Origin: a virus
IMG/VR virus record: IMGVR_UViG_3300029121_000001
Length of the DNA stretch: 64,000 bases
Direction: 5' to 3' (one strand)
Shown in pieces: positions 7,992 through 59,653 of this stretch (positions within the stretch are counted from its first letter, which is position 1; each line of letters begins with the position of its first letter). Made by a program: the position numbers and the translations under genes. Below the pieces are notes generated by a model that ran no database searches, was not told where the DNA came from, and saw only the letters and a list, made by a program, of their open reading frames with translations.

Positions 7992-8024
7992 ATATAAAAC
8001 CTCTCATTTCTATATTTTGGATTT

Positions 8025-9366: not shown

Positions 9367-9694
9367 CCTTTATACCCTCGGTTTCCCGATATTTAAGTAC
9401 GGGAGTAGACTATACATTATCACCTAATTTATAGTATTAGACTTATTGCTATTATAGTCGTTGAACGTCTCTCATATATTTCTATAGAAGATTTCGCTGC
9501 GTCTGAGTGACTTGCACACTCGGTTGATCCTACTCCAACCAGTTCTTATGGTCTCTACTATATTTCAAGCTGTTGAGTTTTAAACTCGTGCCACTATCAC
9601 GCTTATCATTTCTGATTACGTTGTAGTCGGTTGGGATTATGGGATTGTTCCCGCAATTTAAGCAATTTAACGTGAGCCATATTTTATTCATCTA
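9367..9694 (-). ncRNA. group I self-splicing intron (no ORF) in nrdD
   Basis: Minus-strand core GUUCAACGACUAUAAU (cf. Tetrahymena R element GUUCACAGACUAAAU) and AUGUAUAGUCUAC (cf. S element GAUAUAGUC). P7 is GACUA/UAGUC. P1 is exon GUGGGU with guide GCUCAC, including the terminal U.G pair. P10 is exon-2 AUAUU with AAUAU just 5' of the guide. The intron ends in G. Confidence 0.75.
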
Positions 9695-12044: not shown

Positions 12045-12126
12045 TGGATATTTCCTCCTAAAGTAAAAATTTCTTTCGAGCAAAGTCGATTACTATTAAG
12101 TTCAGCTAGAGAGTAAAATCAAAATA

Positions 12127-26639: not shown

Positions 26640-28469
26640 TTAATAACGCACAGCGAGAGCAGGTGTCTGAAGAATAGCCTGGTTTGCAGTAAACATGATG
26701 GTGATAATCTTGGAAATAGTATCAAGAATCATGGGTTCGGATTCAATGGAAGTAAGAACCTTACCATCATACTGCTCAGTATTCATATTAAAAGGAATAC
26801 CATTTTTAGCCATGTTATTAGCAATCTCACTAACAGTTGTACTCTGATACATGGTGCCATAAAGGGAATGAATGGCCTCATTATATGCATTGTACAAAAT
26901 GTTAACGATATTGCAAGCATACTTATACTCTTCATCAGATGCATCTCTAAAATCATTTTCAATAGTCTTACCATTAGTAATACTATATCCAACAGCATTA
27001 GCACCGTAGCCAACACCATTCTTAGCAGCAGAACGAGTATTCAGAACAGCATCTTCAACAAGGTCACGAAGCGAATCTCTATCAGAAATAGAAATACCAC
27101 CAACAAAGATTTCAATCATATTGCAGCGAATTGCATTAAGTTGACGCTTCAGAGAACCAAGTGTACCAACATTTCCTGCCTGAGAGGAGAGACTATTATA
27201 CTGTGCCTGAATAAAGTTTACAATACTGTTATATGTATCACTATATACAGGCTTATCATCATTATCGTAGATGATATTACCATTATCATCAGTCTTATAC
27301 ATCAAAGCAGGATCGATAACCTTAGTACGAGTTTCATCAGCATCAATCTCATTTGCAGTACCATAGAAATTATCGCAAACAGTATCTAGAGTAGGAGCTA
27401 GACCACTTTCCTGATCCTGCTTCTTGATCTTATCATCGATATATTTCTTAATGGGCTTACAACCACATAGCTGAGAAATATAATCGATATAATTCTCATC
27501 AAGCCCTACATAATTCGTTACAATCAGAATAGGAGGTTTCTGGCTATAAGAAGATTCAGGATACTGAAGTAGCATCTGAACAATACGGCGCATATAAGCC
27601 TGAGCATCACGACTAATCTGAGGTGCAAAGATGGCAGTAGGAATATACTTACCATCTCTGCGAGTAAAATGATCCATGATGTTAGACTCAATAATCTTCT
27701 GGAATAGTGCAAGCTGTTCAGGCGTATCGATAGTTTCTGCAAAGTGATAGATACGCAACGGATGAGTAGTAGTAGAATGAATTACACAAGAATGTGTATC
27801 AATGCTATTAATCATTGCAGGATCAGAATAACCAGATTCAATAGTTACACCATCATAAGTCTTGATGTAAGTATTCTCATTGGTAGATGCAGAAACATCA
27901 ATAAAGACATTCATTCCATATTCAGAATAAATTTCCTTTAGTGTATCTGCAATATATTCATTTCCATTTGTAGAAATATATGCAATGTCATAAATATCAT
28001 CAAGAGTGCATTCATGACCTTTTGCACGAATCTTCTCAGAAATACTAGAGATAACTTTCTTAAAGATTCTCATAGTTTCATAAGGATTAGACGGAAGATT
28101 ACCTTCAGCTTCTGCTTTACAGAGACCATTGAAGATATTAGAAGACATGACAACAATAGAAGAAGTGCCATCGCCAACAGTCTTTTCGATATGTCGAGTA
28201 GCATTTTCAATTTCAGACTTAATAGCCATTTCAATGGGTTCCTGATACTTGACATTCTTAATGATCTTATTACCATCCTTAGTATATTCTGCAACAATAT
28301 CTGCATCAGAATTACCACGGATAATTAGAGAGTTAGATCCAGCAGGACCCATAGAAGGAATGATCGCATTTGCAAGATCCTGAAGAACCTTCTGCTGAAC
28401 ATCACGAAGCTTGGTACCAGAAACAACATTGTTTACACTACCAATAGAAATCTGGTTAGCTATTGCCAT
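26640..28469 (-). CDS. phage-encoded chaperonin (GroEL/Cpn60-like)
   Basis: SMGPAGSNSLI (cf. TLGPKGRNVV), TKDG, GDGTSSIVVMS (cf. GDGTTTATVLA), about 600 aa. Confidence 0.65.
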   Translation of the reverse strand: MAIANQISIGSVNNVVSGTKLRDVQQKVLQDLANAIIPSMGPAGSNSLIIRGNSDADIVAEYTKDGNKIIKNVKYQEPIEMAIKSEIENATRHIEKTVGDGTSSIVVMSSNIFNGLCKAEAEGNLPSNPYETMRIFKKVISSISEKIRAKGHECTLDDIYDIAYISTNGNEYIADTLKEIYSEYGMNVFIDVSASTNENTYIKTYDGVTIESGYSDPAMINSIDTHSCVIHSTTTHPLRIYHFAETIDTPEQLALFQKIIESNIMDHFTRRDGKYIPTAIFAPQISRDAQAYMRRIVQMLLQYPESSYSQKPPILIVTNYVGLDENYIDYISQLCGCKPIKKYIDDKIKKQDQESGLAPTLDTVCDNFYGTANEIDADETRTKVIDPALMYKTDDNGNIIYDNDDKPVYSDTYNSIVNFIQAQYNSLSSQAGNVGTLGSLKRQLNAIRCNMIEIFVGGISISDRDSLRDLVEDAVLNTRSAAKNGVGYGANAVGYSITNGKTIENDFRDASDEEYKYACNIVNILYNAYNEAIHSLYGTMYQSTTVSEIANNMAKNGIPFNMNTEQYDGKVLTSIESEPMILDTISKIITIMFTANQAILQTPALAVRY

Positions 28470-30058: not shown

Positions 30059-31846
30059 TTAAAACTTTGGATCTGTTAATTTACTAACATCATCTCTTAA
30101 GACCAAAGTCATATTGTATAGAGATTGAACTGCTTCTTTTTCAGAAACACGAATATTAGTACAAGCCATATTAATAAAATTAGCTTTAGAGTTAGTGAAG
30201 TTTGCCAACTCTTGGTTGGTTTCATTAAAGAAAGATCCCTTAACTTGACCCATATCACCATCATAGTCAGCTCCCATACCATTTAGATATAGGTTAGAAA
30301 TTTGCATTGTATCAATGAATTTCTGAGCAGAAGGAGCATTGATATCTTCAAGCCTAATCTTTGGATAGAACTTATATAGTTCTCCATTAAGCATAATAGG
30401 TTCTGTTTCTTTAGTAGTAGCAACTTCAATACCTGTATAGATGGTATTAAAATAAGAGTCATAAGGATATCGAGTAAACGAAATTTGCTTACCATCAGTA
30501 GCTCTAATAGCTGCTACATAAATAACATCAACCCAAGTAAGAGGTCTCTGCAAAGTAGGTTCAGGTGATAGCTCTGCATCTTTTACACTGTCCCATCTCT
30601 TACCTTTAAAAGTCATATAATATGTATGGTCAGTATTCTTTGTAGGTAATTCAACAGGAATAAAACGAGTATCATGAGAATAAACAAATTTCTTTAGGTG
30701 ATCTTTAATCATATCATCATTGAAATAAGCCATAGGATCATCAGCTAATGCAATAGAAACTTGTTCACCATTATCATTTACGAATTCATATGATGTAGCA
30801 TTTTGAAGTTCATTTTCAAAGAATTTTCTGATATGGAACATCATGAAAGGATAGAAATCCGCTGCAACAGCAGCAAGTGGAATAGCAGATTTATCTATTG
30901 TTACCATTAGATCATCTACACTATTTGTATTTAGATTAGGAGCAGATAGGACTAGACGAGAAGAATAGTCAGAAGTATATCCCATATTTGCTCTAATCAA
31001 ACCAAATTTACCACCTAGACCAGAACCTTTATCTTTAATATCACTATTAGAATTTCCACAAAACCAGTCGTAAATAGCTTTCAATGTATTCTGAATTCTA
31101 TAGCAAGTAGTATCTGCCATAGATAGACCATAATCATTATTCTCTTTCAATGCTCTAGCAGCAGTAAGTAAATTAACATAGAAAGTATTGATCTGTCCAA
31201 CGCCGGTATGTTTACCAGTTGTATTAACGTCTCTATAGTAAGGAGGAATAACAATATATTTATTTATAAACATTCTTCCTTTGTTATAGTTATGCATTAT
31301 ATACTTAATACGCATATCTCTTGTGCGAGAATCAGTTTTCTTAAACTTAATTTTGCCAAAGTTTTGCTTAAGCCATTTAATGCCAGTATTGCCGGTTTCA
31401 TCTTCAACTAGCTCACCATCAGGAGTAATAATATATTTATTAATACCATTAATAATTCCTTTAAATTTAGAGTCAAGTTTTGTAAGAGTCTTCCAACAGC
31501 TCGGATCTATGAAATATTCTGCAAGATCGATATATGCATAAATACCAGATCTTTCTTTCTGAGTCATACCAAAGATTTCGTTAGAAAGAAGTCCATCTGA
31601 TGTAGGAGCTCCACTAGGAGAAAAGAAAGTAGGATTAGTAATTTCTTTAAGTTCATTTTGCTTAATATATAGAGGAACATCAAGAACCTCAAGTTGTAGA
31701 ACAGCATTATTTGCACGGTCTTGATAAGTAGCCTCATCAAGTCTAGTCCAATCAGGATCTTGATCAATACTTTCAAAAAATCTATCTAGAGGATCACTGT
31801 CCTGAAGATATCCATATTCGATAAGAATATTACAGTTATCAATCAT
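30059..31846 (-). CDS. multisubunit RNA polymerase beta'-like subunit, N-terminal part with catalytic DxDGD loop
   Basis: NGMGADYDGDMG matches the NADFDGD Mg-binding motif about 45 aa from the C-terminus. Start trimmed to ATG 31846 (SD GGAGG). Confidence 0.8.
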   Translation of the reverse strand: MIDNCNILIEYGYLQDSDPLDRFFESIDQDPDWTRLDEATYQDRANNAVLQLEVLDVPLYIKQNELKEITNPTFFSPSGAPTSDGLLSNEIFGMTQKERSGIYAYIDLAEYFIDPSCWKTLTKLDSKFKGIINGINKYIITPDGELVEDETGNTGIKWLKQNFGKIKFKKTDSRTRDMRIKYIMHNYNKGRMFINKYIVIPPYYRDVNTTGKHTGVGQINTFYVNLLTAARALKENNDYGLSMADTTCYRIQNTLKAIYDWFCGNSNSDIKDKGSGLGGKFGLIRANMGYTSDYSSRLVLSAPNLNTNSVDDLMVTIDKSAIPLAAVAADFYPFMMFHIRKFFENELQNATSYEFVNDNGEQVSIALADDPMAYFNDDMIKDHLKKFVYSHDTRFIPVELPTKNTDHTYYMTFKGKRWDSVKDAELSPEPTLQRPLTWVDVIYVAAIRATDGKQISFTRYPYDSYFNTIYTGIEVATTKETEPIMLNGELYKFYPKIRLEDINAPSAQKFIDTMQISNLYLNGMGADYDGDMGQVKGSFFNETNQELANFTNSKANFINMACTNIRVSEKEAVQSLYNMTLVLRDDVSKLTDPKF

Positions 31847-32471
31847 TGTTATTACCTCCTTCTGCAACAGCATTTAAAACAGAAACATATCTAGAGTGCA
31901 TTTTTCCAAAATACTCTTTTTCTTCGTTATTACCAATATATGCAAAGAAATATAGTTTCTCCATTAATGAATAATACTGTACACTTATTTTAAATAATAT
32001 ATCTTCCTGGTTAGCTTCATACAGTGGACTACATAAATATCTAATGGAGCATAATACATTAGATATATTAGAAAGAATAATAGCTTCTTTACATGGACCA
32101 TTAGCATAAAAAATATGTTCATGTGAATAAATAATATCATCAATTAAGGTATACAAAATTGAATCAGTATGAACCAATGTATCTATATCATCTCTATATT
32201 TAGCATTAAATAGTTCATATATAATAGCGGTTATAGAATCTTCTATAGCATTAATAGTAAATACAGGAGCTTGCTCAAAAGAAGTACAAAATATATTACC
32301 ACATATAGCAGAGATATCATTATGATTAATTGCAGATAAAAAATCTATGCATTCATTTATAGATCCAAATACATGATCTGATTTAATTCTTTCATTGAAT
32401 TCAAAATATCTATCTGATCTAGACTTAAATTTCTTTTGACAAAATGCATTAATTTGTCTATCAGTCATCAT
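31839..32471 (-). CDS. hypothetical protein
   Basis: ORF track. Start trimmed to ATG 32471 (SD AAGGAGAG). Its 3' end overlaps the beta' start by 8 nt. Confidence 0.5.
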   Translation of the reverse strand: MMTDRQINAFCQKKFKSRSDRYFEFNERIKSDHVFGSINECIDFLSAINHNDISAICGNIFCTSFEQAPVFTINAIEDSITAIIYELFNAKYRDDIDTLVHTDSILYTLIDDIIYSHEHIFYANGPCKEAIILSNISNVLCSIRYLCSPLYEANQEDILFKISVQYYSLMEKLYFFAYIGNNEEKEYFGKMHSRYVSVLNAVAEGGNNND

Positions 32472-33159: not shown

Positions 33160-34140
33160 TTATACAACGGTAAGATATTTCTTATCTACATATCCAGTCA
33201 GTGCACCGGTTTGATATACAGAAATTCCAATTTTATTTCCACTAATAGATCTTATATATAGTTTAGAAGTATAAACCCAAGATGCGAAAGTCTTAGTAGA
33301 ATTATAAATTGGAGCATTCTTAGTAATGGTAACTTGCTTTCCAACTACCAGTGTATTACTAGCAGGAAGAAGTTTTGCCCAAGAAGGATCATATGCAATC
33401 CAGTTATTATTAGCAATTCTATACCGAGTATATCCACCCATATTCTCAGTAGCAGTATAGTTATAATAACCTTGCTTAGCATGTCCTATAGCTTTGCCAT
33501 TATTATCTCTAATTCTTAGATTATTTGTCATAACTTGAATTTGATTAACATTGGTATTTCTAGCTACAGGAACAGCTATAACAGATGTAGTGGATTCTTT
33601 TACTACTGTTGTATCTTTTACAGCTGGATTATAAATAAATCCTCTAAAATGATATTTACCAGCAGTTCCCCAGTTACCATCAGATCCTTTACTTCTGACT
33701 CTATTTCTAAAAGCAAAAGAATTATATCCAGATTCAGAAGTTTTGACACTAGTAGAGCTTATAACAGATTCTACAACTGCTACATGACCAGCACCATCAC
33801 TACGCTTAAGTGTAGCACCTTTTTGCCAAACCATAATAGCTCCAGCTTTAGGAGTAAGTCCAACGGACAATCCATATGCTTTTGCTACTTCAATAAAGTT
33901 TTCTGCATTGCAGCAAAAATTAGGATATTTGATTCCATTAAATCCAGTAAGAAGATTATAAATATGATTAAATCTACCACAAGCCCAACCAACACAATTA
34001 CACAGCACATTGCAATCAGAATCGGCAGGCTTACCAGTAATACATCTAGATTTACCACCTTTAGATGCATTATTGTATAGATATGCATACCTATCTGTCT
34101 TCCTTGGCTTAGAAGTCAAAATAGGAAAAGGATTAGCCAT
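33160..34140 (-). CDS. endolysin: N-terminal Cys-His peptidase/amidase (CHAP/NlpC-P60-like) plus C-terminal SH3b-like repeats
   Basis: NCVGWACGRF (nucleophile Cys) and GAGHVAVVESV (His). Two C-terminal SH3b-like modules (..NNLRIRDNNGKAIGH..YTRYRIANNNWIAYD.. and ..ITKNAPIYNS..GALTGYVDKKYL). Confidence 0.7.
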   Translation of the reverse strand: MANPFPILTSKPRKTDRYAYLYNNASKGGKSRCITGKPADSDCNVLCNCVGWACGRFNHIYNLLTGFNGIKYPNFCCNAENFIEVAKAYGLSVGLTPKAGAIMVWQKGATLKRSDGAGHVAVVESVISSTSVKTSESGYNSFAFRNRVRSKGSDGNWGTAGKYHFRGFIYNPAVKDTTVVKESTTSVIAVPVARNTNVNQIQVMTNNLRIRDNNGKAIGHAKQGYYNYTATENMGGYTRYRIANNNWIAYDPSWAKLLPASNTLVVGKQVTITKNAPIYNSTKTFASWVYTSKLYIRSISGNKIGISVYQTGALTGYVDKKYLTVV

Positions 34141-45807: not shown

Positions 45808-45858
45808 ATTATAAACCTCCTAATTATTATAATGCTAAGTCAAAAATCAAAAATTAAT

Positions 45859-45886
45859 AGAGGATAGAGAGTGATCTCTATCCTCT
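45859..45886 (-). terminator. intrinsic terminator (hairpin) closing the fibre/rSAM operon
   Basis: AGAGGATAGAGA/TCTCTATCCTCT hairpin after the stop at 45925. Confidence 0.55.
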
Positions 45887-45924
45887 ATATTATATTTCAG
45901 TATTTATAAAATGGATATTATTCG

Positions 45925-47286
45925 TTACTTATTAAATGCTTCTTTTTCTAGATTAAATAGATAATCTGCTTCTTCTTTACCAAGAATATCTACTACCTCA
46001 TTATATGGAAGATTGATCTTCTTAGGTTCAACATCATTTAATTCCATATGCCGTTTATTATAATAATAACAAGATGACAATACTCTACCTTTATGTGCAT
46101 AGCAGATTCCAGTATATCTTTTATTTGCTGTCCCATAAAGTTCGTAATTATATCCAGAACACCAGCCACATCCCTGAGATACTGGGCAAATCATGCATTT
46201 TTCAGGAGATTGAGATTCTCTAGTGATAGAATCTAATTCTTCTTTTATTTTCTTTTCACTATCTCGTTGATAAATGCCATTAAAGCAATCTCCAATACAA
46301 ATTTTAGATGCTTTTTCATCACCAATGGATATAGGCGCATATCTAATACAAGGATATACTTTTCCATCAGGAGCAAATGCAAGCATTGCTCCAGTGCCTC
46401 CACAATAATTTCTTACAGAGATATCAATATCTCCTATATTGTCATTAATCATTGTGATATATCCATTATATTTAGATTTTATCAAATAATTAGATAATTT
46501 CTTTAATTCTGCATATATTTCATTTGCTGTTTTTATTGTATATTCTGGCTCATATGCAAAATTACAATGAATATTCATGCAGCCATTATTTATCATCATC
46601 TTAATAGAATCAGAAATATATTTAATAGACCCAGGAGTAAATGTCATTTTACTATCTATCCAGCCATATTTCTTTTTTCCATCAAGAAAAGCAGCATATG
46701 CTTTTTCAAATGATCCATTTCCGAATTGATCTATTCTATATTTATCATGTAATTCCTGTACCCCATCAATCGATACTGTACATCTTAAAAAATTATGATA
46801 TTTTTTAAATAGGTGTTGAGCATTTGGAGTAAACCATAAAAGTCCATTGGTTGCAAATGAAAATCTTGTAAATGGTGCTAGTGGTATATTTCTTTCTTCA
46901 CATTGGTAAAAATAATAATCGATAATCGATTCAATTAACTTTGCTTCTATCAAAGGCTCGCCACCAATAAAATCGATTATCAATCCTTTAGAAAAATCAC
47001 CAATAAAATCACCATTATTATACATATCTAAAAGTGTATCGACACACTTTCTAGCCGTATAAATGTTCATTGATCCACATTTCTTATTATGCTCATAACA
47101 ATATGAACATCTCAAATTGCATTGATTGGTGACTTGAAATGTTACTGTTCTACATTTAAAATAATTTTCATTGTTATTATTATCATTTCTAAAAATTCTT
47201 TCGATAAATTTAGAATAATCTTCAGATCGTTTAATCACTATATCGTACCTCACGATTTTCAAAATCAAAAATATATTCAATCTCAT
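45925..47286 (-). CDS. radical SAM enzyme with C-terminal SPASM domain (peptide/protein maturase, anSME-like)
   Basis: CNLRCSYCYE (CxxxCxxC). SPASM-type Cys clusters YCGGTGAMLAFAPDGKVYPC and CMICPVSQGCGWCSGYNY..GICYAH. An alternative coupled start is GTG 47238 (GAGG 9 nt upstream, overlapping the upstream stop). Confidence 0.8.
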   Translation of the reverse strand: MRLNIFLILKIVRYDIVIKRSEDYSKFIERIFRNDNNNNENYFKCRTVTFQVTNQCNLRCSYCYEHNKKCGSMNIYTARKCVDTLLDMYNNGDFIGDFSKGLIIDFIGGEPLIEAKLIESIIDYYFYQCEERNIPLAPFTRFSFATNGLLWFTPNAQHLFKKYHNFLRCTVSIDGVQELHDKYRIDQFGNGSFEKAYAAFLDGKKKYGWIDSKMTFTPGSIKYISDSIKMMINNGCMNIHCNFAYEPEYTIKTANEIYAELKKLSNYLIKSKYNGYITMINDNIGDIDISVRNYCGGTGAMLAFAPDGKVYPCIRYAPISIGDEKASKICIGDCFNGIYQRDSEKKIKEELDSITRESQSPEKCMICPVSQGCGWCSGYNYELYGTANKRYTGICYAHKGRVLSSCYYYNKRHMELNDVEPKKINLPYNEVVDILGKEEADYLFNLEKEAFNK

Positions 47287-47527
47287 GATCTAATTTTGGT
47301 AAGTGATTAGAAATAATTTTTCTACGGGCATAATCTAATTCAATAAAAGACAGTCTTAATTTATCTGAATATTTCTTTAGCACTTCTTCTTTTTTACTAT
47401 TAGATTCATTCTCTTGTAGTGAATCGAAAATAATTTTAACCATTATTTCATAGCTTTTATATATATAAAATAATCGTTCAATATATTCCAATTCTGCTTC
47501 TTGAATATCTTCAATTTTATGTTCCAT
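47231..47527 (-). CDS. small helical protein of the rSAM operon
   Basis: Start trimmed to ATG 47527 (SD GGAG, 1 nt after the upstream stop). 98 aa, charged and helical. Confidence 0.5.
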   Translation of the reverse strand: MEHKIEDIQEAELEYIERLFYIYKSYEIMVKIIFDSLQENESNSKKEEVLKKYSDKLRLSFIELDYARRKIISNHLPKLDHEIEYIFDFENREVRYSD

Positions 47528-47528
47528 A

Positions 47529-48122
47529 TTAGTTTTCTCCATGGATTATATTATATTGAGTATTACTGATCTTTTCAAAAGATTCTTGAATATCCATTCT
47601 CATTTTTATTAATTTAATCATGGTTGAAAAATTATCATCAGTAGAATTTCTAAAAAATAAAATCATACTTGAAATTATATAATATAAAGAAAATATAATT
47701 TCATCAGATAATTCACTAAGATTAAGATTAATAATTGAATCTGTAAAATCTTTTGTAAAAACATTTTGAAAATATTTTTTATTATTATCTAAGATTTTGA
47801 AATAAAAAGTTCTTATTGCAAGTCCTAAAGAGATAATATATTTTTCATAATCATTATTAAATTTATAATTGCATCCATTTGCAATAATATCTATTTTCGA
47901 CTTTACATAATTTAGCCAAGAATTAAAAACATAATTACTATCTATTTTATTGAATTGACCCATATAATATAAAATATAAACTATATTATTTTTATTGATA
48001 TTTCCATTTATATGATTATAAATATCATTAACAGAGAAATCTTCTCTATTCAAAAAATGAAAAAGAGCTAGATCTTGATCAACAATTTTATCTGGATCTA
48101 TTGATTTTATATAATATTCCAT
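47529..48122 (-). CDS. hypothetical protein of the rSAM operon (197 aa)
   Basis: ORF track. SD AAGGAG. 11 nt after the stop of the CXXX-repeat gene. Confidence 0.5.
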   Translation of the reverse strand: MEYYIKSIDPDKIVDQDLALFHFLNREDFSVNDIYNHINGNINKNNIVYILYYMGQFNKIDSNYVFNSWLNYVKSKIDIIANGCNYKFNNDYEKYIISLGLAIRTFYFKILDNNKKYFQNVFTKDFTDSIINLNLSELSDEIIFSLYYIISSMILFFRNSTDDNFSTMIKLIKMRMDIQESFEKISNTQYNIIHGEN

Positions 48123-48133
48123 ATTTTATCTCC

Positions 48134-48700
48134 TTAATTCAACCAAAATTTAGCATTTCCACAGGATCCACCACAATCTGCAGTACAATTACCTCCATCA
48201 CAATTTTCATAGCATGCTCCCATACAATTACCACTCATAAGTTGGCTAGCACATGCTACGTCACACATACCATCACAGCTTCCGCTGCAACCACCACTAC
48301 AGCCACTACAGCCACTATAGCATCCTGTATAGCACAATCCACTGCAGCTAGATTTACATCCTGTATCTGCCCTAGATGATGCTGTAACAGATTTAGAACT
48401 TAAACTAGAAACTGTACTAGTAGCAGTTGTGATTTGATTAGCATAAACAATAGTATCTGTATTAGGAGTTAATTTGCCTCCATTTACAGCATCTAGTGGA
48501 TTAGTAATCTTTTGAATGTGCTCTAGTTTTATATTTTTGCCTTTTGCAGGTGTAATAGTATAATCATATGAAGTTCCATTATAGGATTTCATACTTCCAA
48601 CACTTGCTGAATTTGATCTACGCGTAATCTCCGATTTTACAAGTTTCTTAAGTGCAGTAAAATCACTAGCACTAATTAATCCACCTTTATTAGTAGCCAT
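48134..48700 (-). CDS. protein with C-terminal 16-Cys CXXX-repeat domain
   Basis: Start trimmed to MATNKGG (ATG 48700, SD AAAGGAG inside the fibre gene end). The last 74 aa are CKSSCSGLCYTGCYSGCSGCSGGCSGSCDGMCDVACASQLMSGNCMGACYENCDGGNCTADCGGSCGNAKFWLN. Confidence 0.7.
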   Translation of the reverse strand: MATNKGGLISASDFTALKKLVKSEITRRSNSASVGSMKSYNGTSYDYTITPAKGKNIKLEHIQKITNPLDAVNGGKLTPNTDTIVYANQITTATSTVSSLSSKSVTASSRADTGCKSSCSGLCYTGCYSGCSGCSGGCSGSCDGMCDVACASQLMSGNCMGACYENCDGGNCTADCGGSCGNAKFWLN

Positions 48701-48707
48701 AATTATA

Positions 48708-49649
48708 TTACTCCTTTCCAATAATAATTCTTACTTTATGAATATTATTATTACTATTAGAAGATTCTATTACTCTGCCTACAGATAGATTAGAATATTC
48801 TTTACTAGACTTTCCAACTCCAGGAATATCAGAAGGGATAATATAATCTCCAATATCTACATTACCAATACACTTTACATATACACGTCCACATAATCCT
48901 ATGGGAATATATTTCTTAATATTCTTAGAAATATAATCATCTCCAGTATCTACTGTTTCTCCACCAATAATCATAGCATATTCATCAGAATGAACTCCTG
49001 CAATAATACTACTTTTATTAGTAGCTTTAATATATTTCTCTTCTTTATTATTTTCATCTAATGCAATAATATCTCCAGGTTCTGTATATTCTCCTCTAGG
49101 GAAGAACTCTGCATAGTCATTATATACAGCACCATAACATTTACTAAATTTTGCTACACCATTTTTATCTACATAATAACTAGCACTACCAAAATTAATA
49201 GTACCAGTCATTGTTCCTCCTGCTATAGGAAGATAAGCGTCATTTAGCGAAGTCAGAGTCTGATTCATAGAATAGATCAGAGCAGAGGTAGGAATGTAGT
49301 CATTGGAGTTAACTTGAGTACTAGAAGTAGGTAGTTGAGCAACCTTATGAGAGTGATTAGAAGGTGCTTTGCCATCAATTTGGCCCTTAACAGTAGAGCC
49401 AGTAGAGAAGCCAGTACCAAGAACATTGTACAGATAGCGGACATTTTTTGCCATCTGAGTAATCTTAGTAAAGATACTAGCATGGTTATCGGAAGTAGTA
49501 ATTTGACCTACATTAGTCCAAGATGTTGCACTTGCTTGGGCAACATCGCTAGAAGAGAATCCACCAGTACCTGTAGTAAGAGTACCAGTAGGGGAAGGAG
49601 ATATGTCGTAAGACGTAGATCCTACCTTAATATGATCAACATTAGCCAT
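48708..49649 (-). CDS. tail-fibre-like protein
   Basis: AYLPIAGGTMTGTINF (the common phage fibre motif YLPLAGGTMTG). C-terminal ..VYNDYAEFFP.. resembles the autoproteolytic/chaperone domains of fibre and appendage proteins. Confidence 0.55.
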   Translation of the reverse strand: MANVDHIKVGSTSYDISPSPTGTLTTGTGGFSSSDVAQASATSWTNVGQITTSDNHASIFTKITQMAKNVRYLYNVLGTGFSTGSTVKGQIDGKAPSNHSHKVAQLPTSSTQVNSNDYIPTSALIYSMNQTLTSLNDAYLPIAGGTMTGTINFGSASYYVDKNGVAKFSKCYGAVYNDYAEFFPRGEYTEPGDIIALDENNKEEKYIKATNKSSIIAGVHSDEYAMIIGGETVDTGDDYISKNIKKYIPIGLCGRVYVKCIGNVDIGDYIIPSDIPGVGKSSKEYSNLSVGRVIESSNSNNNIHKVRIIIGKE

Positions 49650-49760
49650 ATTTTTTAGTTTCCTTTCTCTAAATTTACCTGTTTTGGCTTGATTTTGAGT
49701 AACTATTTTAAAAAAGAAATTGCGGGGTGATCATAAAGACCACACCGAATAAGATCTTAA

Positions 49761-49905
49761 ACGTAGCCTTCAATAAAATAAATTCAACGAAACCTTCAAA
49801 TTATCTGACGCTTCTTATAGTCTTCAATTACAATGGATAAATCTGTATATCGAAATCTTCAAAACATTTTAACGAATCGTTCATTCATTTTAACGCAATC
49901 TTCAT
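49761..49905 (+). repeat. array of six or seven degenerate repeats ACG(N0-3)(C/T)(C/G)TTCA(A/T), spaced about 21-26 nt
   Basis: ACGTAGCCTTCAAT (49761), ACGAAACCTTCAAA (49787), ACGCTTCTTAT (49808), TCTTCAAT (49821), CGAAATCTTCAAA (49851), ACGAATCGTTCATT (49872), ACGCAATCTTCATT (49893). Confidence 0.5.
49803..49815 (+). repeat. inverted copy of the AGAAGCGTCAGAT repeat
   Basis: atctgacgcttct is the reverse complement of the core at 50361..50375 and 50664..50678. Confidence 0.8.
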
Positions 49906-49979
49906 TATCATATTGTTACATATTTTTAAATTAAAAATGATATTATATGAAACATATACTAAATAAGATATAAAAATAT

Positions 49980-50009
49980 GAGGGTAGAAATCGTCAAATT
50001 TCTACCCTC
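49980..50009 (-). terminator. intrinsic terminator
   Basis: 12-bp stem GAGGGTAGAAAT/ATTTCTACCCTC, then ATATTTTTAT on the minus strand. Confidence 0.6.
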
Positions 50010-50113
50010 TAAATACCCCATTTTAGGCCATTTTAGAGGCGTTTGGCAGATTTCTCAGACTACTTCGTAATAGCGTCATATTATTTAAAAAATAATAAAA
50101 ATAAAAAGAAAAG

Positions 50114-50137
50114 CCAATAGAGATTTCTCTCTATTGG
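50114..50137 (-). terminator. intrinsic terminator
   Basis: Hairpin CCAATAGAG/CTCTATTGG, then CTTTTCTTTTTATTTTT on the minus strand. Confidence 0.6.
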
Positions 50138-50145
50138 TTTATAAT

Positions 50146-50376
50146 TTAAATATAGACAATGTTTGCATGATAATCTGTATTACCAGATACTGCACTATCA
50201 GAGTAGTGATTTATGTATTTGCAATATAATTTTCCATTTTCTTTACAAACCTAGTAGATTGTACTGCCGTATGTACTTAAATTCAATAATTCATATCCAA
50301 TCATTATATCATTTAATTTATATCCTTTAGTATCAATATAAATATTATTAAGTCTTTTTATAGAAGCGTCAGATTG
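50146..50376 (-). pseudogene. cassette-like gene remnant with an in-frame TAG
   Basis: In the same frame as 50380..50622: QSDASIKRLNNIYIDTKGYKLNDIMIGYELLNLSTYGSTIY*VCKENGKLYCKYINHYSDSAVSGNTDYHANIVYI*. The TAG is at 50251..50253. No SD. Confidence 0.3.
50361..50375 (-). repeat. 15-nt direct repeat TAGAAGCGTCAGATT, copy 2
   Basis: Exact copy of 50664..50678 (303 nt apart). On the minus strand it encodes SDAS right after stop codons. Confidence 0.85.
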
Positions 50377-50379
50377 CTA

Positions 50380-50622
50380 TTATATAGAAATATAATAAAT
50401 ATTTATGGTTCCAACCATAGGTGATCTAATAAATGTAAAATTATTACTATTATTAATTTTACATGAATAAAATAAATAAATAATAAATCTTTCATTTGTA
50501 GATGTATATTGTGAATGTGCTACATTTACTAATATCATCGTAATATTGTCAGTCGTATCTGGAATTGCATTAATTAGATACTCACTAGAATAATCTGTTG
50601 AAGTCATTTTCACTTCAATCAT
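50380..50622 (-). CDS. small hypothetical ORF (cassette 1)
   Basis: ORF track. No convincing SD. The frame stays open upstream to the repeat at 50664..50678 (SDASTKIKQRTQSINNTY-M..). Confidence 0.3.
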   Translation of the reverse strand: MIEVKMTSTDYSSEYLINAIPDTTDNITMILVNVAHSQYTSTNERFIIYLFYSCKINNSNNFTFIRSPMVGTINIYYISI

Positions 50623-50663
50623 ATATGTATTATTTATACTCTGAGTTCGCTGCTTAATTTTAG

Positions 50664-50678
50664 TAGAAGCGTCAGATT
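50664..50678 (-). repeat. 15-nt direct repeat TAGAAGCGTCAGATT, copy 1
   Basis: Exact copy of 50361..50375. Confidence 0.85.
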
Positions 50679-50683
50679 AATAG

Positions 50684-50723
50684 AAAAAAAAATAAAGAGG
50701 AAGTAGTTTTATCTACTTCCTCT
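50684..50723 (-). terminator. intrinsic terminator
   Basis: Hairpin AGAGGAAGTAG/CTACTTCCTCT, then TTTATTTTTTTTT on the minus strand. Confidence 0.7.
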
Positions 50724-50730
50724 TTTACAT

Positions 50731-54345: not shown

Positions 54346-55278
54346 TTAAATTGCTACAGGGAATTTTACATTAGGACCAGCATTATAATTTTCAATGTGA
54401 ATATTATCTACTGTAAAATCATAAAAACTATCTACTTTATCAATCCATACTGTAGGAGCATCAAGAATAGGTCTCTCAATAAGTTTCTGTACTACAGGAA
54501 CATGACGATCATAGATATGGCAATCAGAAATTACGTGAACCAATTCACCAGGATACATATCACATACCTTAGCAAACATCATCACTAGAGCCGCATACTG
54601 AACCACGTTCCAGTTACTAGCAGTAAGCATATCCTGAGAACGCTGATTTAGAATAGCGTTCAACGTCATACGACCATCTTCCTTATCTCTAGTAACATTA
54701 AAAGTCATAGAGTAAGCACAAGGATAAAGATTCATTTCATGAAGGTCATTGAAATTATAAATATTGGTCATGATACGGCGAGAGAAAGGATTATGCTTCA
54801 GATCCCATAGAACTCCATCGACCTGATCAAGAGCAACATAGTATTTACCGTTCTTCATAATAACAGAAGAACTAGGATAAGCAGCTAACTCTTCATACAA
54901 TTCATGGGTAGGATAATCAGGGATAGTATGATGAAGATACTTTTTACCAAGCTGGTATCCATAAGCTTTGCCAATAGTACTATTTTCATCAGCCCAAGAA
55001 TCCCAAATATGAGAATTAAGATCTTTCACATTGTTACTCTTCTTCTGCCAAATCCAAAGGAGTTCATCAATAGCAGCTTTAATATTAATCTTGCGTAGAG
55101 TAAGTGCAGGAAACTCTTTCTGAAGATTATATCGATTAACTACACCAAATTTCTTAATGGTATATGCAGGCTCATTAGTATCGGCCCATTTTGCACGAAC
55201 CTCTTCACCTGTAGTATCAATACCATTTTCAATAATATCGGTACAAGTTTTAATAAAAATATTATCCGCCTGAGACAT
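54346..55278 (-). CDS. thyA: thymidylate synthase family enzyme (ThyA-like, divergent)
   Basis: SRRIMTNIYN..LYPCAYSMTFNV (cf. RRxIxSAWN..PCHAFFQF), NQRSQDMLTASNWNVVQYAAL (cf. QRSxDxxLGxPFNIASY), SDCHIYDRH (cf. GDxHxYxNH). Start trimmed to ATG 55278 (SD AGGAGG). Confidence 0.75.
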   Translation of the reverse strand: MSQADNIFIKTCTDIIENGIDTTGEEVRAKWADTNEPAYTIKKFGVVNRYNLQKEFPALTLRKINIKAAIDELLWIWQKKSNNVKDLNSHIWDSWADENSTIGKAYGYQLGKKYLHHTIPDYPTHELYEELAAYPSSSVIMKNGKYYVALDQVDGVLWDLKHNPFSRRIMTNIYNFNDLHEMNLYPCAYSMTFNVTRDKEDGRMTLNAILNQRSQDMLTASNWNVVQYAALVMMFAKVCDMYPGELVHVISDCHIYDRHVPVVQKLIERPILDAPTVWIDKVDSFYDFTVDNIHIENYNAGPNVKFPVAI

Positions 55279-55330
55279 AGTTGGAAACCTCCTATATAAT
55301 AAGTAATTATATAAAAGTGCTTCATCTAGT

Positions 55331-55369
55331 AAAAAATAAAGAGGGATTGGAGTTAAATCCAATCCCTCT
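55331..55369 (-). terminator. intrinsic terminator
   Basis: Hairpin AGAGGGATTGG/CCAATCCCTCT, then TTTATTTTTT on the minus strand. Confidence 0.7.
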
Positions 55370-55376
55370 TTAATTG

Positions 55377-55790
55377 TCAACTAATCATGAAGTAACAAAG
55401 TTCAATGAAACTCTCAACATCTGAGAGCTTTGAAGTTACTTTATGAGGAAATACTCTAGGAGTATCAATAAACCCTTTATAGAGATCATTGATAATGCAG
55501 CAATAATCATTAATTGCATACATGATCTGGCATTTCATAATGCCGATGATTTCCATTTTAGGAATTTTATATTCCTTTACGTATTTCTCATACTGGACTT
55601 CTGGCGAAGCCCCAATCATAGATTGGGTTTCTTCACCGTTATAAACGCGATAAATTTCAAATCGCGTTCCTGTGAATTTTAACATCCCCTGATAGATCTT
55701 CTTGGTTGCAGAATGAGTAGAATAAACATTAATCTCAACCATAGGAAGCTCACTATCTTTATGGACTTTTTCAACGACCAAATGATTCAT
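55377..55790 (-). CDS. hypothetical protein
   Basis: Start trimmed to MNHLVVEK (ATG 55790, 1 nt after the upstream stop). Confidence 0.45.
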   Translation of the reverse strand: MNHLVVEKVHKDSELPMVEINVYSTHSATKKIYQGMLKFTGTRFEIYRVYNGEETQSMIGASPEVQYEKYVKEYKIPKMEIIGIMKCQIMYAINDYCCIINDLYKGFIDTPRVFPHKVTSKLSDVESFIELCYFMIS

Positions 55791-57495: not shown

Positions 57496-59318
57496 TTACA
57501 TTCGAACAGAATTAGAGAAGTTTGCTCTCTTTGCACCGAATTGGCCAATACCAGCAGACGATGCAGGGAAATTACCAAGATTATCAGAAATGATCTGTTC
57601 ATAATCAATCAATTTTCTCAACCAATCAGGAACAGGAAGATCTTTAGGTAGTGCAATAGTATCAAGCTTTCCTTTGAAAACTTTATTAATTGTTCTACCT
57701 TCTACTAATCCTGTATTATTAAGATCAATCAATTCACAGATCTTTACATACTGCATTGGATAATCTTCTCTAATAGTTTCCAAGGTATATTTATCAACTT
57801 TAACCTTGATTACATCAATGGCATTTCTATCATTCAAATCAAATCCAGGAAGATCACACTTGATATAATTCCATGCCATTGCTGCTTTAACACCTTGAAT
57901 TCTAGTAGGATCATCATAGTTATCCATAGACTTAATAGTTGCAGGCTTGTAATATTTCTTAGATCCGGAAACAAGATCATTATAAATGGTCTTTTCAAGA
58001 ATAGCAATGTCTTTGATCAACTTCAATTGATCAATAGAATCTCCAGTAAGCATATCTTCAAGAAGAATCTTTTTCAATGCTTTCTGGGTATCTTTAGAAG
58101 TAGAAGATTTAGTTAGACAATCAATACCCTTGACATCCAATACGCCACTTCCAAGATAATTGCCTTCCTGCAGAATCTGAAGACTTGCATAATGTTTCTT
58201 TGCATCTGTCAACATGATTCGAGACATATAGAACTCATTCTTCATGTTGATCTTACATTTATCAGCTCCTCTAAAAGATTTAGATTCCTTAGTAAAATCA
58301 ATCATATACTGATTAATTACAGAAGAGAGAATATAACACATGATATTGATCAATGCAAATTTTACATTATCCTGAGGAATAATCTTCGTAGCATCAATCA
58401 TTCTCTTTTGCTCAATAATCTCTTCATTAAAGAAATCATAATCTTTTTTATTTTCCAGAAATTCAATAGCTGCTAATTCATCAGGGTTTGCAATGTCACC
58501 AAAACTATCAGTTTTTAAGAAACTTATTGCAACCTGTTTATCTACAGCATTATACCAATCTGGGGTTTCTGTATCTTTCCAGAAATAATCTTCTTTCTTC
58601 TTTTCAGCTTCTAGATACTTAAATACATCAATCTGTTGATGCATAATAGGACAGTCATAATTCTGAAGATACTGGATATTATAATTATACCAAGCATCCA
58701 AAGAAATGAAAGACGAGTCAGTATCAGATACAATAGATACTGTCTTAATCATTTCTTTATTTCTAATCATTCTATCCATATATTGATGACAGTAGAAGAC
58801 ATATTCCATCAATAGATCACGAAGCTGATCAAGATATCCGATTATTTCTTTCGGAGGTTTAGCAGGTTCAATATAAGGAGTTTTCATTCCAGTAATAATC
58901 TTTATCATCAAATCTCTTGCAATAGGCAAGTCCATAAAACAATAAAGATTATTCTTATAGAACAATCTATTCAATTCAATCTGATTACAATTTTGAATAA
59001 TTCTCCATACAGTTTCCATATCCTGTTCTGTAGGAACATATTTAAAACCACAATTTAGAATGATCTTATTAAAACATTCATCTGGAGAAATAAAACCATT
59101 AAATCCAAGAACTTCATAATCATTATATTTCCAGTCATTTCCCTCCATTCTTACATTGTCAATAAAGATGAGAACATCATTAAGACTTCCAAACTTAACA
59201 TTGTTCCCAAGGAATCCTTCAAAGCAAAGAATTGCAGAACTAATTAGAGATCTACCGATAGATGTTACAGAAGGTGCAATGTTGAGGTCGAACAAAATCG
59301 ATACATACAAACCAACCA
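57496..59318 (-). CDS. family B DNA polymerase, exon 3 (palm/thumb)
   Basis: After splicing it reads ..IYG/LVGLYVSILFDLNIAPSVTSIGR (cf. RB69 [26 protein letters not shown]). Motif C is VSIVSDTDSSF and the KKxY motif is DAKKHYASL. The track N-terminus MINSNELREDFV is intron sequence. Confidence 0.8.
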
Positions 59319-59653
59319 CAAAATCTTCACGTAGCTCGTTGGAGTTAATCAATGGATTAATCCTCTCTTCTACGCAGTTCTCTTATGAACTTCTCTAGGT
59401 GTTGCCTAGAAGTTGTGACTATATAATAGTCTATATAAATTATTTTATATAGACCCAGGATTTTCGAATTAAACGGTCTTACGTTTACAAGACAGCCGTC
59501 CCCACTTGGGGCCTACTCCTCTTAAGAGGATAGTCGATAAGCGTCTCTTATGATTTCTCATAAGCTTTCGCAATTGATTAGAGCCGTAGCCCTTTCCCAA
59601 TTTTAACCCTTGTTATCATTCTTGACTCACATCAAGAAGGGGCAGTTTAGTTT
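59319..59653 (-). ncRNA. group I intron B in the DNA polymerase gene (no ORF)
   Basis: Minus-strand core CUUAUCGACUAUCC and UAUAUAGUCAC (P7 GACUA/UAGUC), preceded by a P8 hairpin. P1 is exon GGGU with GCCC, including U.G. P10 is exon-3 GGUU with AACU. Ends in G. The 3' hairpins are shared with intron A, with compensatory changes. Confidence 0.65.

Follow-up and report, generated by a model that had tools for sequence, protein, structure and literature searches.

A cysteine-repeat protein encoded next to a phage tail-fibre gene as the probable substrate of an adjacent radical SAM/SPASM enzyme

Background

The known targets of thioether-forming radical SAM enzymes are small secreted peptides and a single dehydrogenase subunit, and we know of no phage structural protein that is matured by such an enzyme. 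In the QhpD/QhpC system, a SPASM enzyme puts several Cys thioethers into a protein subunit that is retained in a larger assembly. Very small rings, with the acceptor within three residues, have to our knowledge little precedent among radical-SAM thioethers. In the PapB/PapA system (freyrasin, Paenibacillus polymyxa), a SPASM enzyme is paired with tandem Cys units of four or five residues (C-X3-D units) in a short leader-core peptide; PapB holds the substrate Cys on auxiliary cluster 1, and its acceptor has to be a carboxylate-bearing residue on the C-terminal side of the Cys (PMC12373016). CteB, which belongs with the SCIFF peptides (about 45 aa, six Cys), has a three-cluster architecture and an N-terminal RRE of about 96 residues. 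The CXXX-repeat target system (TIGR04115/TIGR04114/PF27846/TIGR04117), whose TIGRFAMs families were reportedly introduced by Haft and Basu in 2011, is defined by comparative genomics alone; our literature searches found no biochemical study of any TIGR04115 member. Virion parts that are covalently stabilised or built from short length-variable repeats are represented by the isopeptide chainmail of the HK97 capsid and by collagen-like G-X-Y fibres; these differ from the locus described here in their chemistry and repeat and have no dedicated radical SAM enzyme, and the likeness is a functional analogy only.

The locus described here resembles the CXXX-repeat target system most closely, in that TIGR04115 is the best match of its enzyme and a tandem Cys-X-X-X target lies 848 bases away, and it differs from the curated members in that both the enzyme and the tail of the target score under the cutoffs. 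In our view, it is a divergent member of a family that has a name but no biochemical characterisation, and its phage-structural context has not been described before. Literature searches on CXXX-repeat targets, radical SAM with tail fibre, ranthipeptide with prophage, and Faecalibacterium phage with radical SAM found no study of the module nor, for the CXXX-repeat system, any account of the N-terminal domain (about 110 aa), of the pair of accessory proteins or of an association with tail fibres.

Results and discussion

The Cys-repeat gene and its product

In the window (the whole 64-kb stretch of phage DNA that was analysed), the Cys-repeat gene is the ORF 48134-48700 on the minus strand (188 aa), read from the translation of 48134-48721, and its product ends with ...ADTG-CKSSCSGLCYTGCYSGCSGCSGGCSGSCDGMCDVACASQLMSGNCMGACYENCDGGNCTADCGGSCGNAKFWLN*. 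The earlier note had named no strand for this gene. The plus-strand reading of 48134-48721, an unrelated Thr/Ile-rich shadow ORF, was rejected. Translation probably starts from the ATG at 48700, which has an RBS and is preceded by GGAAAGGAG, and the residue count from this ATG confirmed the N-terminal part of 114 aa that had been proposed earlier. The first Cys codon begins at 48358, and the last base of the stop codon is 48134. The protein is thus divided as follows:

48134..48358, minus strand: CXXX-repeat tail, residues 115-188 plus stop codon, 16 Cys, with the hydrophobic end GNAKFWLN
48359..48700, minus strand: N-terminal domain (residues 1-114), conserved, predicted three-helix domain

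The Cys residues are at positions 115, 119, 123, 127, 131, 134, 138, 142, 146, 150, 159, 163, 167, 172, 176 and 180, with spacings of 4,4,4,4,3,4,4,4,4,9,4,4,5,4,4 (4 in 12/15), so that the earlier description of 16 Cys in 74 residues at these spacings matched the minus-strand translation exactly. The array is not a chance feature, because the binomial probability of at least 16 Cys in 74 residues is 1.5e-13 (background, 1.7% Cys in the long minus-strand ORFs of the window), stop-free stretches of 74 residues elsewhere in the window, in any of the six frames, contain at most 9 Cys, and the Cys positions are kept in 112 homologues. A search of the gene for recent DNA-level tandem amplification of the repeat found only a 9-nt x 3.1 repeat, and such an amplification was rejected. 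The 5 D/E and 3 N residues of the tail all follow Cys 8; the distal half of this protein is thus truly enriched in D/E/N, as had been noted before, and across the family the enrichment is a mild trend, the D/E share of the tail being 1.2% in the first fifth and 8.6% in the fourth fifth.

Among 145 family members, the number of tail Cys ranged from 13 to 64 and was odd in 91 (63%), and the Cys intervals were mostly of spacing 4 (84%) or 3 (14%). The tail composition is 26% Cys with Gly/Ser-rich spacers, and the X positions of the repeat in the family are mostly S/T, G and S/G/T. In the homologue alignments, the Cys positions vary little or not at all, and the X residues drift; the first repeats (G-C-x-S-S-C-S-G-L-C-x-x-G-C) are nearly invariant, and close relatives are separated by whole-repeat indels. 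Additional domains were found ahead of or within the Cys-repeat protein in some relatives (P0320 and P0357), which is unlike a leader peptide. The AlphaFold2 pLDDT of the tail is about 33, and therefore no confident fold is predicted for the unmodified tail. With the profile models, the tail was matched weakly by TIGR04117, the 'Cys-Xaa-Xaa-Xaa repeat radical SAM target protein' model (16.7 bits, E 0.006; cutoff, 50), which was the only useful match of the Cys-repeat protein in the Pfam (a set without PF27846), NCBIfam and PHROG searches; TIGR04114 did not match it in the NCBIfam search. In the test of the TIGR04114/PF27846 repeat model, the homologue P0011 scored 20.2 bits (cutoff, 20), and precomputed PF27846 (tSAM_targ_Cxxx_rpt) assignments are present on about a third of the 112 homologues, among which TIGR04114 was also seen.

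The N-terminal domain is better conserved than the Cys tail. Residues E24, R27 and R28 are shared by all 85 sequences compared, nearly all of the 176 representative relatives carry the domain from residue 1, and AlphaFold2 predicted helices at residues 11-28, 59-73 and 87-101 (pLDDT, 70-90). The domain had no match in Pfam, NCBIfam or PHROG, and its profile gave noise only (E > 0.1) against the PDB sequences; with Foldseek, its model gave zero matches in the PDB and, in BFVD, only unannotated members of the Cys-repeat family. Similarity to a known fibre or adaptor domain was thus not detected by the profile and Foldseek searches. The presence of a conserved, predicted three-helix domain at the N-terminus, encoded 3' of a tail-fibre gene, favours, without proving, a structural reading of this domain (attachment to the fibre) over a leader or docking function.

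The radical SAM/SPASM enzyme

The candidate modifying enzyme is encoded on the same strand as the Cys-repeat gene and downstream of it:

45925..47286, minus strand: radical SAM/SPASM enzyme, 453-aa ORF, 848 bases downstream of the Cys-repeat gene

A 99%-identical protein (P0114) has 437 aa, and therefore the true start may lie 16 codons later. The best match of the enzyme was TIGR04115 'radical SAM peptide maturase, CXXX-repeat target family' (283.2 bits, E 3.7e-84), with an alignment that spans model positions 2-359 of 359, followed by PapB (NF047865; 149.3 bits, far under the cutoff of 340) and the SCIFF maturase TIGR03974 (83.8 bits; cutoff, 425); TIGR03906 (QhpD; 77 bits) and the anaerobic sulfatase maturase (49.7 bits) matched more weakly, and phrog_1802 was matched in the PHROG search. 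The score is under the curated TIGR04115 cutoff (283 vs 350 bits), as are those of the syntenic orthologues in four other loci (L001, L007, L085 and L086; 286-314 bits), whereas the syntenic orthologues in L003 and L004 are above it (386.9 and 427.9 bits, respectively). Since the latter two pass the cutoff that the window enzyme fails, the window enzyme belongs to a divergent branch within one and the same group of syntenic orthologues. Phage homologues of 67-75% identity bear the name of the TIGR04115 family in public records; 1587 homologues were found at E <= 1e-40, and some of the 90%-identity clusters contain more than 2000 sequences.

In an alignment of 63 enzyme sequences, the Cys residues of the CX3CX2C motif (C56, C60 and C63) and seven SPASM Cys (C295, C313 (GX4C), C364, C367, C373, C376 and C395) are invariant; judged from these residues, the Cys set of the window enzyme for one SAM cluster and two auxiliary [4Fe-4S] clusters is complete. 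The closest solved structure is that of CteB (5WGG, E 3e-19; enzyme residues 46-404 against chain residues 97-444), with which the enzyme shares the predicted three-cluster architecture and the pairing with a Cys-rich substrate. The alignment starts at chain residue 97, and therefore the window enzyme has no counterpart of the N-terminal RRE of CteB; its target (188 aa, 16 Cys) also differs in size from the SCIFF peptides, and its TIGR03974 score is under the cutoff (84 against 425 bits).

The fibre gene and the accessory proteins

The Cys-repeat and enzyme genes belong to a tightly packed five-gene unit with RBSs, which encodes, in this order, a tail-fibre-like protein, the Cys-repeat protein, a pair of small helical proteins of 197 and about 100 aa, and the radical SAM/SPASM enzyme. 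The three other genes are as follows:

48708..49649, minus strand: tail-fibre-like protein, gene 1 of the unit, 313 aa, with a GGTMTGTINF fibre-type motif
47529..48122, minus strand: accessory protein p197, 197 aa, family-specific, fold family unassigned
47231..47542, minus strand: accessory protein p103, 98-103 aa, predicted helical hairpin (the near-identical P0113 has 98 aa)

The fibre-like protein gave a weak match to the Peptidase_G2 intramolecular-chaperone domain (residues 142-240, 21.9 bits; cutoff, 25). Its C-terminal region of about 170 aa co-occurs with the module: in 86/89 related loci, tblastn placed residues ~136-308 next to the Cys-repeat gene, immediately on its upstream side. 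In other loci, the upstream gene has Collagen repeats, a Phage_tail_fib N-terminal domain or a PTR domain, and it is a tail fibre in every locus where typing was possible.

The accessory protein p197 gave no Pfam, NCBIfam or PHROG match. It was seen by tblastn between the Cys-repeat and radical SAM genes in 66/89 loci (20-27% identity), and an ORF of 146-218 aa is at this position in most of the 80 complete loci; p197 is fused to p103 in L005 and absent from L090. In p103, the signature IERLxY...FDFxxxEV is conserved. A homologue search with p103 found one near-identical protein (P0113) and nothing else, the Pfam, NCBIfam and PHROG searches gave nothing useful for p103 and the downstream genes, and its profile gave noise only (E > 0.1) against the PDB sequences; vimentin and an anti-sigma factor were what this search and that with the N-terminal domain returned. 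In P0352, encoded in L090, the Cys-repeat protein carries a p103-like domain as a C-terminal fusion (hhalign probability 94.4%, E 8.5e-8). The AlphaFold2 model of p103, made from a single sequence, consists of two long helices (pLDDT, 70.6) with zero beta-sheet, and therefore p103 is not PqqD/RRE-like in this model; its Foldseek matches were generic coiled hairpins, and no RRE match was found by sequence or fold. The assignment of p103 as a stand-alone RRE (PqqD-like) was rejected, with low certainty owing to the single-sequence model.

Linkage of the module and its carriers

Related loci were gathered with a profile from a 7-sequence alignment; 89 were obtained, of which 80 were long enough to include the downstream genes. 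In 80/89, the radical SAM gene is found 1-2 kb further downstream than the Cys-repeat gene, and the other nine are all cut by a contig end, so that the pairing holds for 80/80 sufficiently long loci, in which the module comes after a tail-fibre gene. The same gene order was found in the window jumbo phage, a podovirus-like contig (L003), two PBSX-like myovirus prophages (L004 and L090) and Faecalibacterium genomes (L085-L089), and the module is placed between baseplate/fibre genes and lysis genes: in L004 and L090, the Cys-repeat gene comes after Baseplate_J and Mu_Gp48 and before the lysins, and in L003, it comes after the portal, the capsid and a collagen-like fibre, which is the gene directly upstream. 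No protease or exporter gene was found within the inspected modules. The window encodes NrdD, and the hosts of the carriers include Faecalibacterium, Ruminococcaceae and Vallitalea; the hosts and the window phage are anaerobic. The module is common in phages of gut anaerobes, across unrelated phage morphotypes. Among the cultured phages of GenBank it was not found, the only matches being unannotated fecal 'Bacteriophage sp.' records.

Enzyme-substrate pairing and the acceptor

That the Cys-repeat tail is the substrate of the adjacent radical SAM/SPASM enzyme, as the earlier note had supposed, is very probable on these comparisons; the pairing is well supported because TIGR04115 is the best-matching family and the linkage is seen in 80/80 loci. 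We infer from this pairing that a modification occurs and, by analogy with characterised enzymes, that it is a thioether. Because TIGR04115 is biochemically uncharacterised, the chemistry is extrapolated from far lower scorers (PapB, 149 bits; CteB, 84 bits), and thioether formation is accordingly rated as somewhat better than an even prospect. QhpD/QhpC offers a precedent for a target that is not secreted, and it differs in its Asp/Glu acceptors, in having three links rather than 16-64, in the distant similarity of its enzyme and in having no phage context.

The resemblance to the Cys-X3-Asp/Asn/Glu acceptor geometry of known thioethers, which had been suggested for this tail, was not supported. 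The period of 4 places the next Cys at i+4 (in 12/15 intervals of the window protein), and therefore PapA-type C-X3-D units are impossible inside the array; the window tail has 5 D/E per 16 Cys, and the family tails have on average 0.19 D/E per Cys (range, 0-0.48), with none in P0042 and P0093. PapB-type acidic acceptors as a family rule were rejected on this tail composition. Since conservation is lacking at every X position and acidic residues are few, the acceptor is probably a backbone C-alpha (sactionine-like) or a carbon of Ser/Thr or the neighbouring Cys rather than an Asp/Glu side chain. The window protein further differs from PapA, which is a short peptide, in being a protein of 188 aa (up to ~400 aa in the family) with a predicted folded N-terminal domain in a phage tail module; as with PapA, action on the tandem Cys units would be iterative.

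Proposed mechanism

The 188-aa protein would be made together with the tail fibre, and the co-transcribed enzyme would modify it in the cytoplasm of the anaerobic host. This enzyme would use a SAM-cleaving cluster plus two auxiliary [4Fe-4S] clusters and have no RRE of its own. It may bind the substrate via the N-terminal domain, which is conserved, and via the first repeats, which are nearly invariant, with p197 and p103 assisting substrate engagement; in other lineages, these two accessory proteins occur as fusions with one another or with the substrate. It would then move along the tail, and at each Cys a 5'-deoxyadenosyl radical would abstract H from a nearby residue, so that a thioether is formed between the Cys sulfur and the carbon. 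A ladder of small rings would result, by which a floppy Gly/Ser/Thr-rich tail is turned into a stiff rod that is resistant to reduction and proteases. The rod may be displayed on or beside the tail fibre; this would be of use to phages that infect strict anaerobes of the gut, a setting in which disulfides would be unstable.

The chances that the Cys-repeat protein has a virion or fibre-associated role seem to us evenly balanced. A fibre-associated protein with an iteratively thioether-stapled tail is the best explanation of the whole, and we would neither bet for it nor against it. More tentatively, and with the balance somewhat against it, the protein could be the first known radical-SAM-matured virion protein, a 'stapled rod' fibre appendage in which 13-64 thioether rings replace disulfides for host contact or for survival in the reducing, protease-rich gut. 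Since no acceptor residue is conserved, new chemistry is conceivable, such as an acceptor-agnostic C-alpha linkage or a Cys-to-neighbouring-Cys ladder.

Alternative explanations

Three other explanations were weighed against a fibre-associated, thioether-stapled protein. Tail-fibre assembly chaperones, which are not virion parts, are typically encoded directly 3' of a fibre gene, so the Cys-repeat protein might be a non-virion factor associated with fibre assembly or with the enzyme; or the enzyme might perform another reaction, in which Cys is converted to formylglycine or dehydroalanine for later cross-linking or the array ligates a chain of Fe-S/metal centres during assembly. The Cys-oxidising anaerobic sulfatase maturase is itself a SPASM enzyme and is among the weaker matches noted above, but the closest characterised relatives by score, unlike the sulfatase maturases, form thioethers, and 13-64 repeats with a free choice of X resemble a length-variable structural element rather than a chaperone. 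We regard these possibilities, taken together, as unlikely but worth keeping in mind. A classical RiPP precursor, from which the 114-aa leader is cleaved off and a cross-linked Cys-rich peptide (bacteriocin-like or signalling, to the benefit of the phage or lysogen) is freed at lysis, would fit the place of the enzyme in the peptide-maturase branch of the SPASM enzymes, the 'peptide' targets of the family names and the label of ranthipeptide cluster that antiSMASH-type tools give to such loci; because the prophage modules adjoin lysis genes, release at lysis is plausible. The inspected modules, however, have no leader peptidase or exporter, the N-terminal part is more conserved than the 'core' and is predicted to be a folded domain instead of a short leader, the 'core' varies greatly in Cys number and accepts extra domains, and the coupling is to the distal part of a tail-fibre gene, also in a lytic-type jumbo phage. 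This explanation is improbable in our judgement.

The refuting condition attached to the earlier claim, a disulfide-rich or metallothionein-like metal-binding module that is independent of an enzyme acting elsewhere, draws on a superficial resemblance of the Cys content and the Gly/Ser-rich spacers to metallothioneins and keratin-associated proteins, and on automatic names (one homologue is named after a Cys-rich receptor fold, and another is 'TNFR-Cys domain-containing'). Against it stand the strict co-occurrence with the enzyme, the gene fusion that ties the substrate to an accessory protein, the definition of the enzyme family by CXXX-type targets, and the strictly anaerobic hosts, in whose reducing habitat disulfides are unstable; it is very improbable. 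An all-disulfide fold is disfavoured in particular, as the Cys number has no fixed even value and the odd counts argue against a fold in which all Cys are paired.

If the stapled fibre appendage is true, it would represent a new route to stable phage host-contact structures without oxygen, and RiPP enzymology would gain a highly iterative enzyme (16-64 turnovers per substrate) with an acceptor rule to work out, and many 'ranthipeptide clusters' of gut Clostridia may be prophage tail modules, which calls for caution in genome mining. If the protein is only a chaperone or a released peptide, the locus would still provide an uncharacterised enzyme-substrate pair that is open to experiment. In either case, the module is abundant, and its carriers infect key gut anaerobes such as Faecalibacterium.

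Borders of the unit

The five-gene unit is flanked on both sides by terminator-like hairpins:

45857..45888, minus strand: terminator-like hairpin, 14-bp stem and T-run, directly after the stop codon of the radical SAM gene
49980..50009, minus strand: terminator-like hairpin, 13-bp stem and T-run, ahead of the fibre gene and marking the upstream border

Scans of the surroundings of the locus for Rfam families and tRNAs gave nothing. Terminator-like sites are enriched in the region (9 found against 1.8 expected).

The Cys-repeat gene

The Cys-repeat protein is encoded by an ORF at 48134-48721(-), whose translated C-terminal sequence is CKSSCSGLCYTGCYSGCSGCSGGCSGSCDGMCDVACASQLMSGNCMGACYENCDGGNCTADCGGSCGNAKFWLN; the gene likely starts at the ATG at 48700, which lies ten bases past GGAAAGGAG, just beyond the stop codon of the upstream gene, and gives a product of 188 aa. 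The plus-strand reading of the same coordinates gave a Thr/Ile-rich shadow ORF and nothing else. The tail contains 16 Cys within residues 115-180 (spacings 4,4,4,4,3,4,4,4,4,9,4,4,5,4,4), which reproduces exactly the array and spacings of the earlier note, and the stretch marked there begins with the first Cys codon and ends with the stop codon. Other stop-free stretches of 74 residues, in any frame of the window, contain at most 9 Cys, and with a local Cys content of 1.7% the array has a binomial probability of 1.5e-13. The Cys-repeat feature is real and the observation is confirmed. The sole NCBIfam match of the protein was a weak one (E 0.006) to TIGR04117, named 'Cys-Xaa-Xaa-Xaa repeat radical SAM target protein'. 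The runner-up in Cys density within the window, 14558-14779 (9 Cys in 74 residues), lies in a 411-aa gene at 14435-15670 (+), among the few plus-strand genes, and its product had no match in Pfam.

The phage and the five-gene module

The source is a jumbo phage of an anaerobe, because genes elsewhere in the window specify split multisubunit RNA polymerase beta subunits, a GroEL-like chaperonin and the anaerobic ribonucleotide reductase NrdD, together with a major head protein, DNA polymerase and thymidylate synthase (example jumbo-phage genes as a set: 2232-4472, 30059-31873, 24141-25715, 26640-28469, 9684-12083, 15742-17496, 57496-59352 and 54346-55380). The window has a GC content of ~32% with nearly all genes on the minus strand, no tRNA was found in it by a tRNA scan, and the closest homologues are carried on contigs of 220-270 kb. 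A CHAP-domain protein at 33160-34140 (-) is likely a peptidoglycan hydrolase or tail lysin. The five module genes are tightly packed on one strand, as follows.

48708-49649 (-), tail-fibre-like protein, 313 aa, with a GGTMTGTINF motif and a weak Peptidase_G2 intramolecular-chaperone match
48134-48700 (-), Cys-repeat protein, 188 aa
47529-48122 (-), p197, 197 aa, no family match
47231-47542 (-), p103, 98-103 aa, no family match
45925-47286 (-), radical SAM enzyme, 453-aa ORF
50009-49980 (-), terminator-like hairpin just upstream of the fibre gene
45888-45857 (-), terminator-like hairpin just past the enzyme gene

The region of ~1 kb that precedes the fibre gene (49650-50730) contains no ORF of at least 90 aa and had no match in an Rfam scan; three terminator-like hairpins lie there (50725-50694, 50137-50114 and 50009-49980, all (-)). 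As listed, the 453-aa enzyme ORF shares 56 bases with the end of p103. In the databases, P0114 (99% identical) has a length of 437 aa, which suggests a true start 16 codons later; the overlap would then be just 8 bases.

The Cys-repeat family

A large protein collection contained 112 homologues of the Cys-repeat protein, all built of the conserved ~110-aa N-domain and, after it, a Cys-repeat tail; adding IMG/VR and GTDB loci brought the family to 145 distinct members, for which the following values are given. The tails contain 13-64 Cys (median, 25), spaced by 4 in 83.6% and by 3 in 13.9% of the intervals, and consist of 26% Cys, 29% S/T, 21% G and 5% D/E, with X1 mainly S/T, X2 mainly G and X3 mainly S/G/T. 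The first repeats (G-C-x-S-S-C-S-G-L-C-x-x-G-C) are almost invariant and the later ones drift; whole-repeat insertions separate close relatives (the database proteins P0006 and P0008 versus P0001), and the residues past the last Cys are usually short and hydrophobic (e.g. FWLN, GFLW, PIFI). PF27846 (tSAM_targ_Cxxx_rpt) was carried by about one third of the homologues, and the TIGR04114 cutoff was reached by P0011. Faecalibacterium-type loci (L014, L063, L066, L086 and similar ones, ~7000-8100) encode Cys-repeat proteins of 360-370 aa with 61-64 Cys in a near-perfect period-4 CTGS/CTGT/CANDC array, by far the longest tails of the family. In P0033, P0040 and the locus L080 (6977-8179) the frame changes within the Cys-repeat region and Ala/Pro-rich sequence follows, probably owing to a sequencing or assembly error or to slippage in repetitive DNA.

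Among 1.84 billion representative proteins, HMMER found 176 relatives of the N-domain, which nearly always starts at residue 1; a Cys-repeat tail was present in 88 of the 101 that have at least 150 aa. A few relatives carry an extra domain, which precedes the N-domain in P0320 and is inserted ahead of the tail in P0357. The variants P0320, P0357, P0368 and P0309 have a ~135-175-aa domain before the N-domain, a ~100-aa beta-rich insert between N-domain and tail, or a C-terminal extension, and these extra domains had no match in Pfam. AlphaFold2 with an 85-sequence alignment predicted three helices for the N-domain (pLDDT 70-90) and left the tail without a confident fold (pLDDT ~33). The N-domain model had no match in the PDB with Foldseek, and its BFVD matches were all unannotated proteins of its own family.

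Linkage to the radical SAM enzyme

Of the 89 loci fetched, 80 had a tblastn match to the enzyme at 1-2 kb downstream from the Cys-repeat gene, and in all nine others the contig edge was reached before the expected position; the C-terminal part of the fibre (residues ~136-308 of the window protein) was directly upstream in 86 of 89. The p197-like and p103-like genes sit between the Cys-repeat and enzyme genes. This order recurs in very different phages: it is kept on a contig with a P22-type portal and collagen-repeat fibre (L003) and in prophages of Faecalibacterium and Ruminococcaceae genomes, and in PBSX-like myovirus prophages (L004, in Vallitalea, and L090) the module comes after Baseplate_J and Mu_Gp48 and before the lysin. 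Fusions were also found, of p197 with p103 into a single 296-aa protein (L005, 7607-8497), and of a Cys-repeat protein with a C-terminal p103-like domain (P0352, L090 5001-6005; hhalign probability 94.4%, E 8.5e-8). The L090 locus has no p197, and its enzyme gene, with 36% identity to the window enzyme, directly follows P0352. With low certainty, we rejected p103 as a PqqD-like recognition element, since its single-sequence model shows a helical hairpin (pLDDT 70.6).

The top NCBIfam match of the window enzyme was TIGR04115, 'radical SAM peptide maturase, CXXX-repeat target family' (283 bits, E 3.7e-84, full model; below the cutoff of 350 bits), followed by PapB (149 bits) and SCIFF maturase (84 bits); it also matches phrog_1802, and its homologues with 67-75% identity bear the public name 'radical SAM peptide maturase, CXXX-repeat target family [Caudoviricetes sp.]'. 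Since the L003 and L004 enzymes exceed the cutoff (387 and 428 bits), the window enzyme belongs to their syntenic group as a divergent member. Across 63 homologues, the CX3CX2C motif and the full set of seven SPASM cysteines are invariant. The closest solved structure is CteB (5WGG, E 3e-19), of which the N-terminal substrate-recognition domain is missing from the window enzyme, because the alignment begins at CteB residue 97.

Function and chemistry

The linkage, the family definition and the gene fusions strongly support the Cys-repeat protein as the substrate of the radical SAM enzyme. Thioether formation at Cys would be the chemistry expected by analogy. CteB, with PapB the nearest characterised relative, makes Cys thioethers. 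PapB also does so, binding the substrate Cys at auxiliary cluster 1, and requires a carboxylate acceptor (PMC12373016). The earlier note was partly right: an enzyme-substrate pairing is well supported, and its Cys-X3-Asp/Asn/Glu acceptor geometry does not fit, because period 4 places the next Cys at i+4, D/E are scarce (mean 0.19 per Cys; two members have none) and no X position is conserved above ~50%. If thioethers form, the acceptor would probably be the backbone C-alpha, or a carbon of Ser, Thr or a neighbouring Cys.

A plain disulfide or metallothionein domain would account for the tail without the enzyme; against this, 91 of the 145 members have an odd number of Cys, the gene is strictly linked to that of the enzyme and the phages infect strict anaerobes. 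As for the role of the modified protein, we prefer a structural protein associated with the fibre and bearing a stapled rod of variable length to a peptide precursor of the leader-core type, because the gene has a constant position after the tail-fibre gene, the fibre C-terminal domain co-transfers with the module, the N-domain is folded and conserved, some members carry inserted extra domains, the repeat number varies and the module has no protease or exporter gene. A non-virion assembly factor is possible. It is credible, though less likely than not, that radical SAM maturation of a virion protein is seen here for the first time.

Comparison with known systems

The system is a divergent, newly found member of the CXXX-repeat radical SAM target family (TIGR04115/TIGR04114/PF27846), which was defined by comparative genomics and is already named yet biochemically uncharacterised; literature searches found no experimental work on this family, nor any account of the N-domain, the pair of accessory proteins or the setting in a phage tail module. 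PapB/PapA and SCIFF/CteB are broadly alike in working, but the window system falls outside them by score, motif and RRE. For thioethers put into a protein that stays in an assembly, the closest precedent is QhpD/QhpC. None of the cultured phages in GenBank has the module. Distant SPASM-type radical SAM homologues (~27-28% identity, 82% query coverage) are present in cultured jumbo phages of Enterobacteria, such as Salmonella phage SPN3US (140135-141313) and Erwinia phages ChrisDB and Huxley, and in Campylobacter phages.
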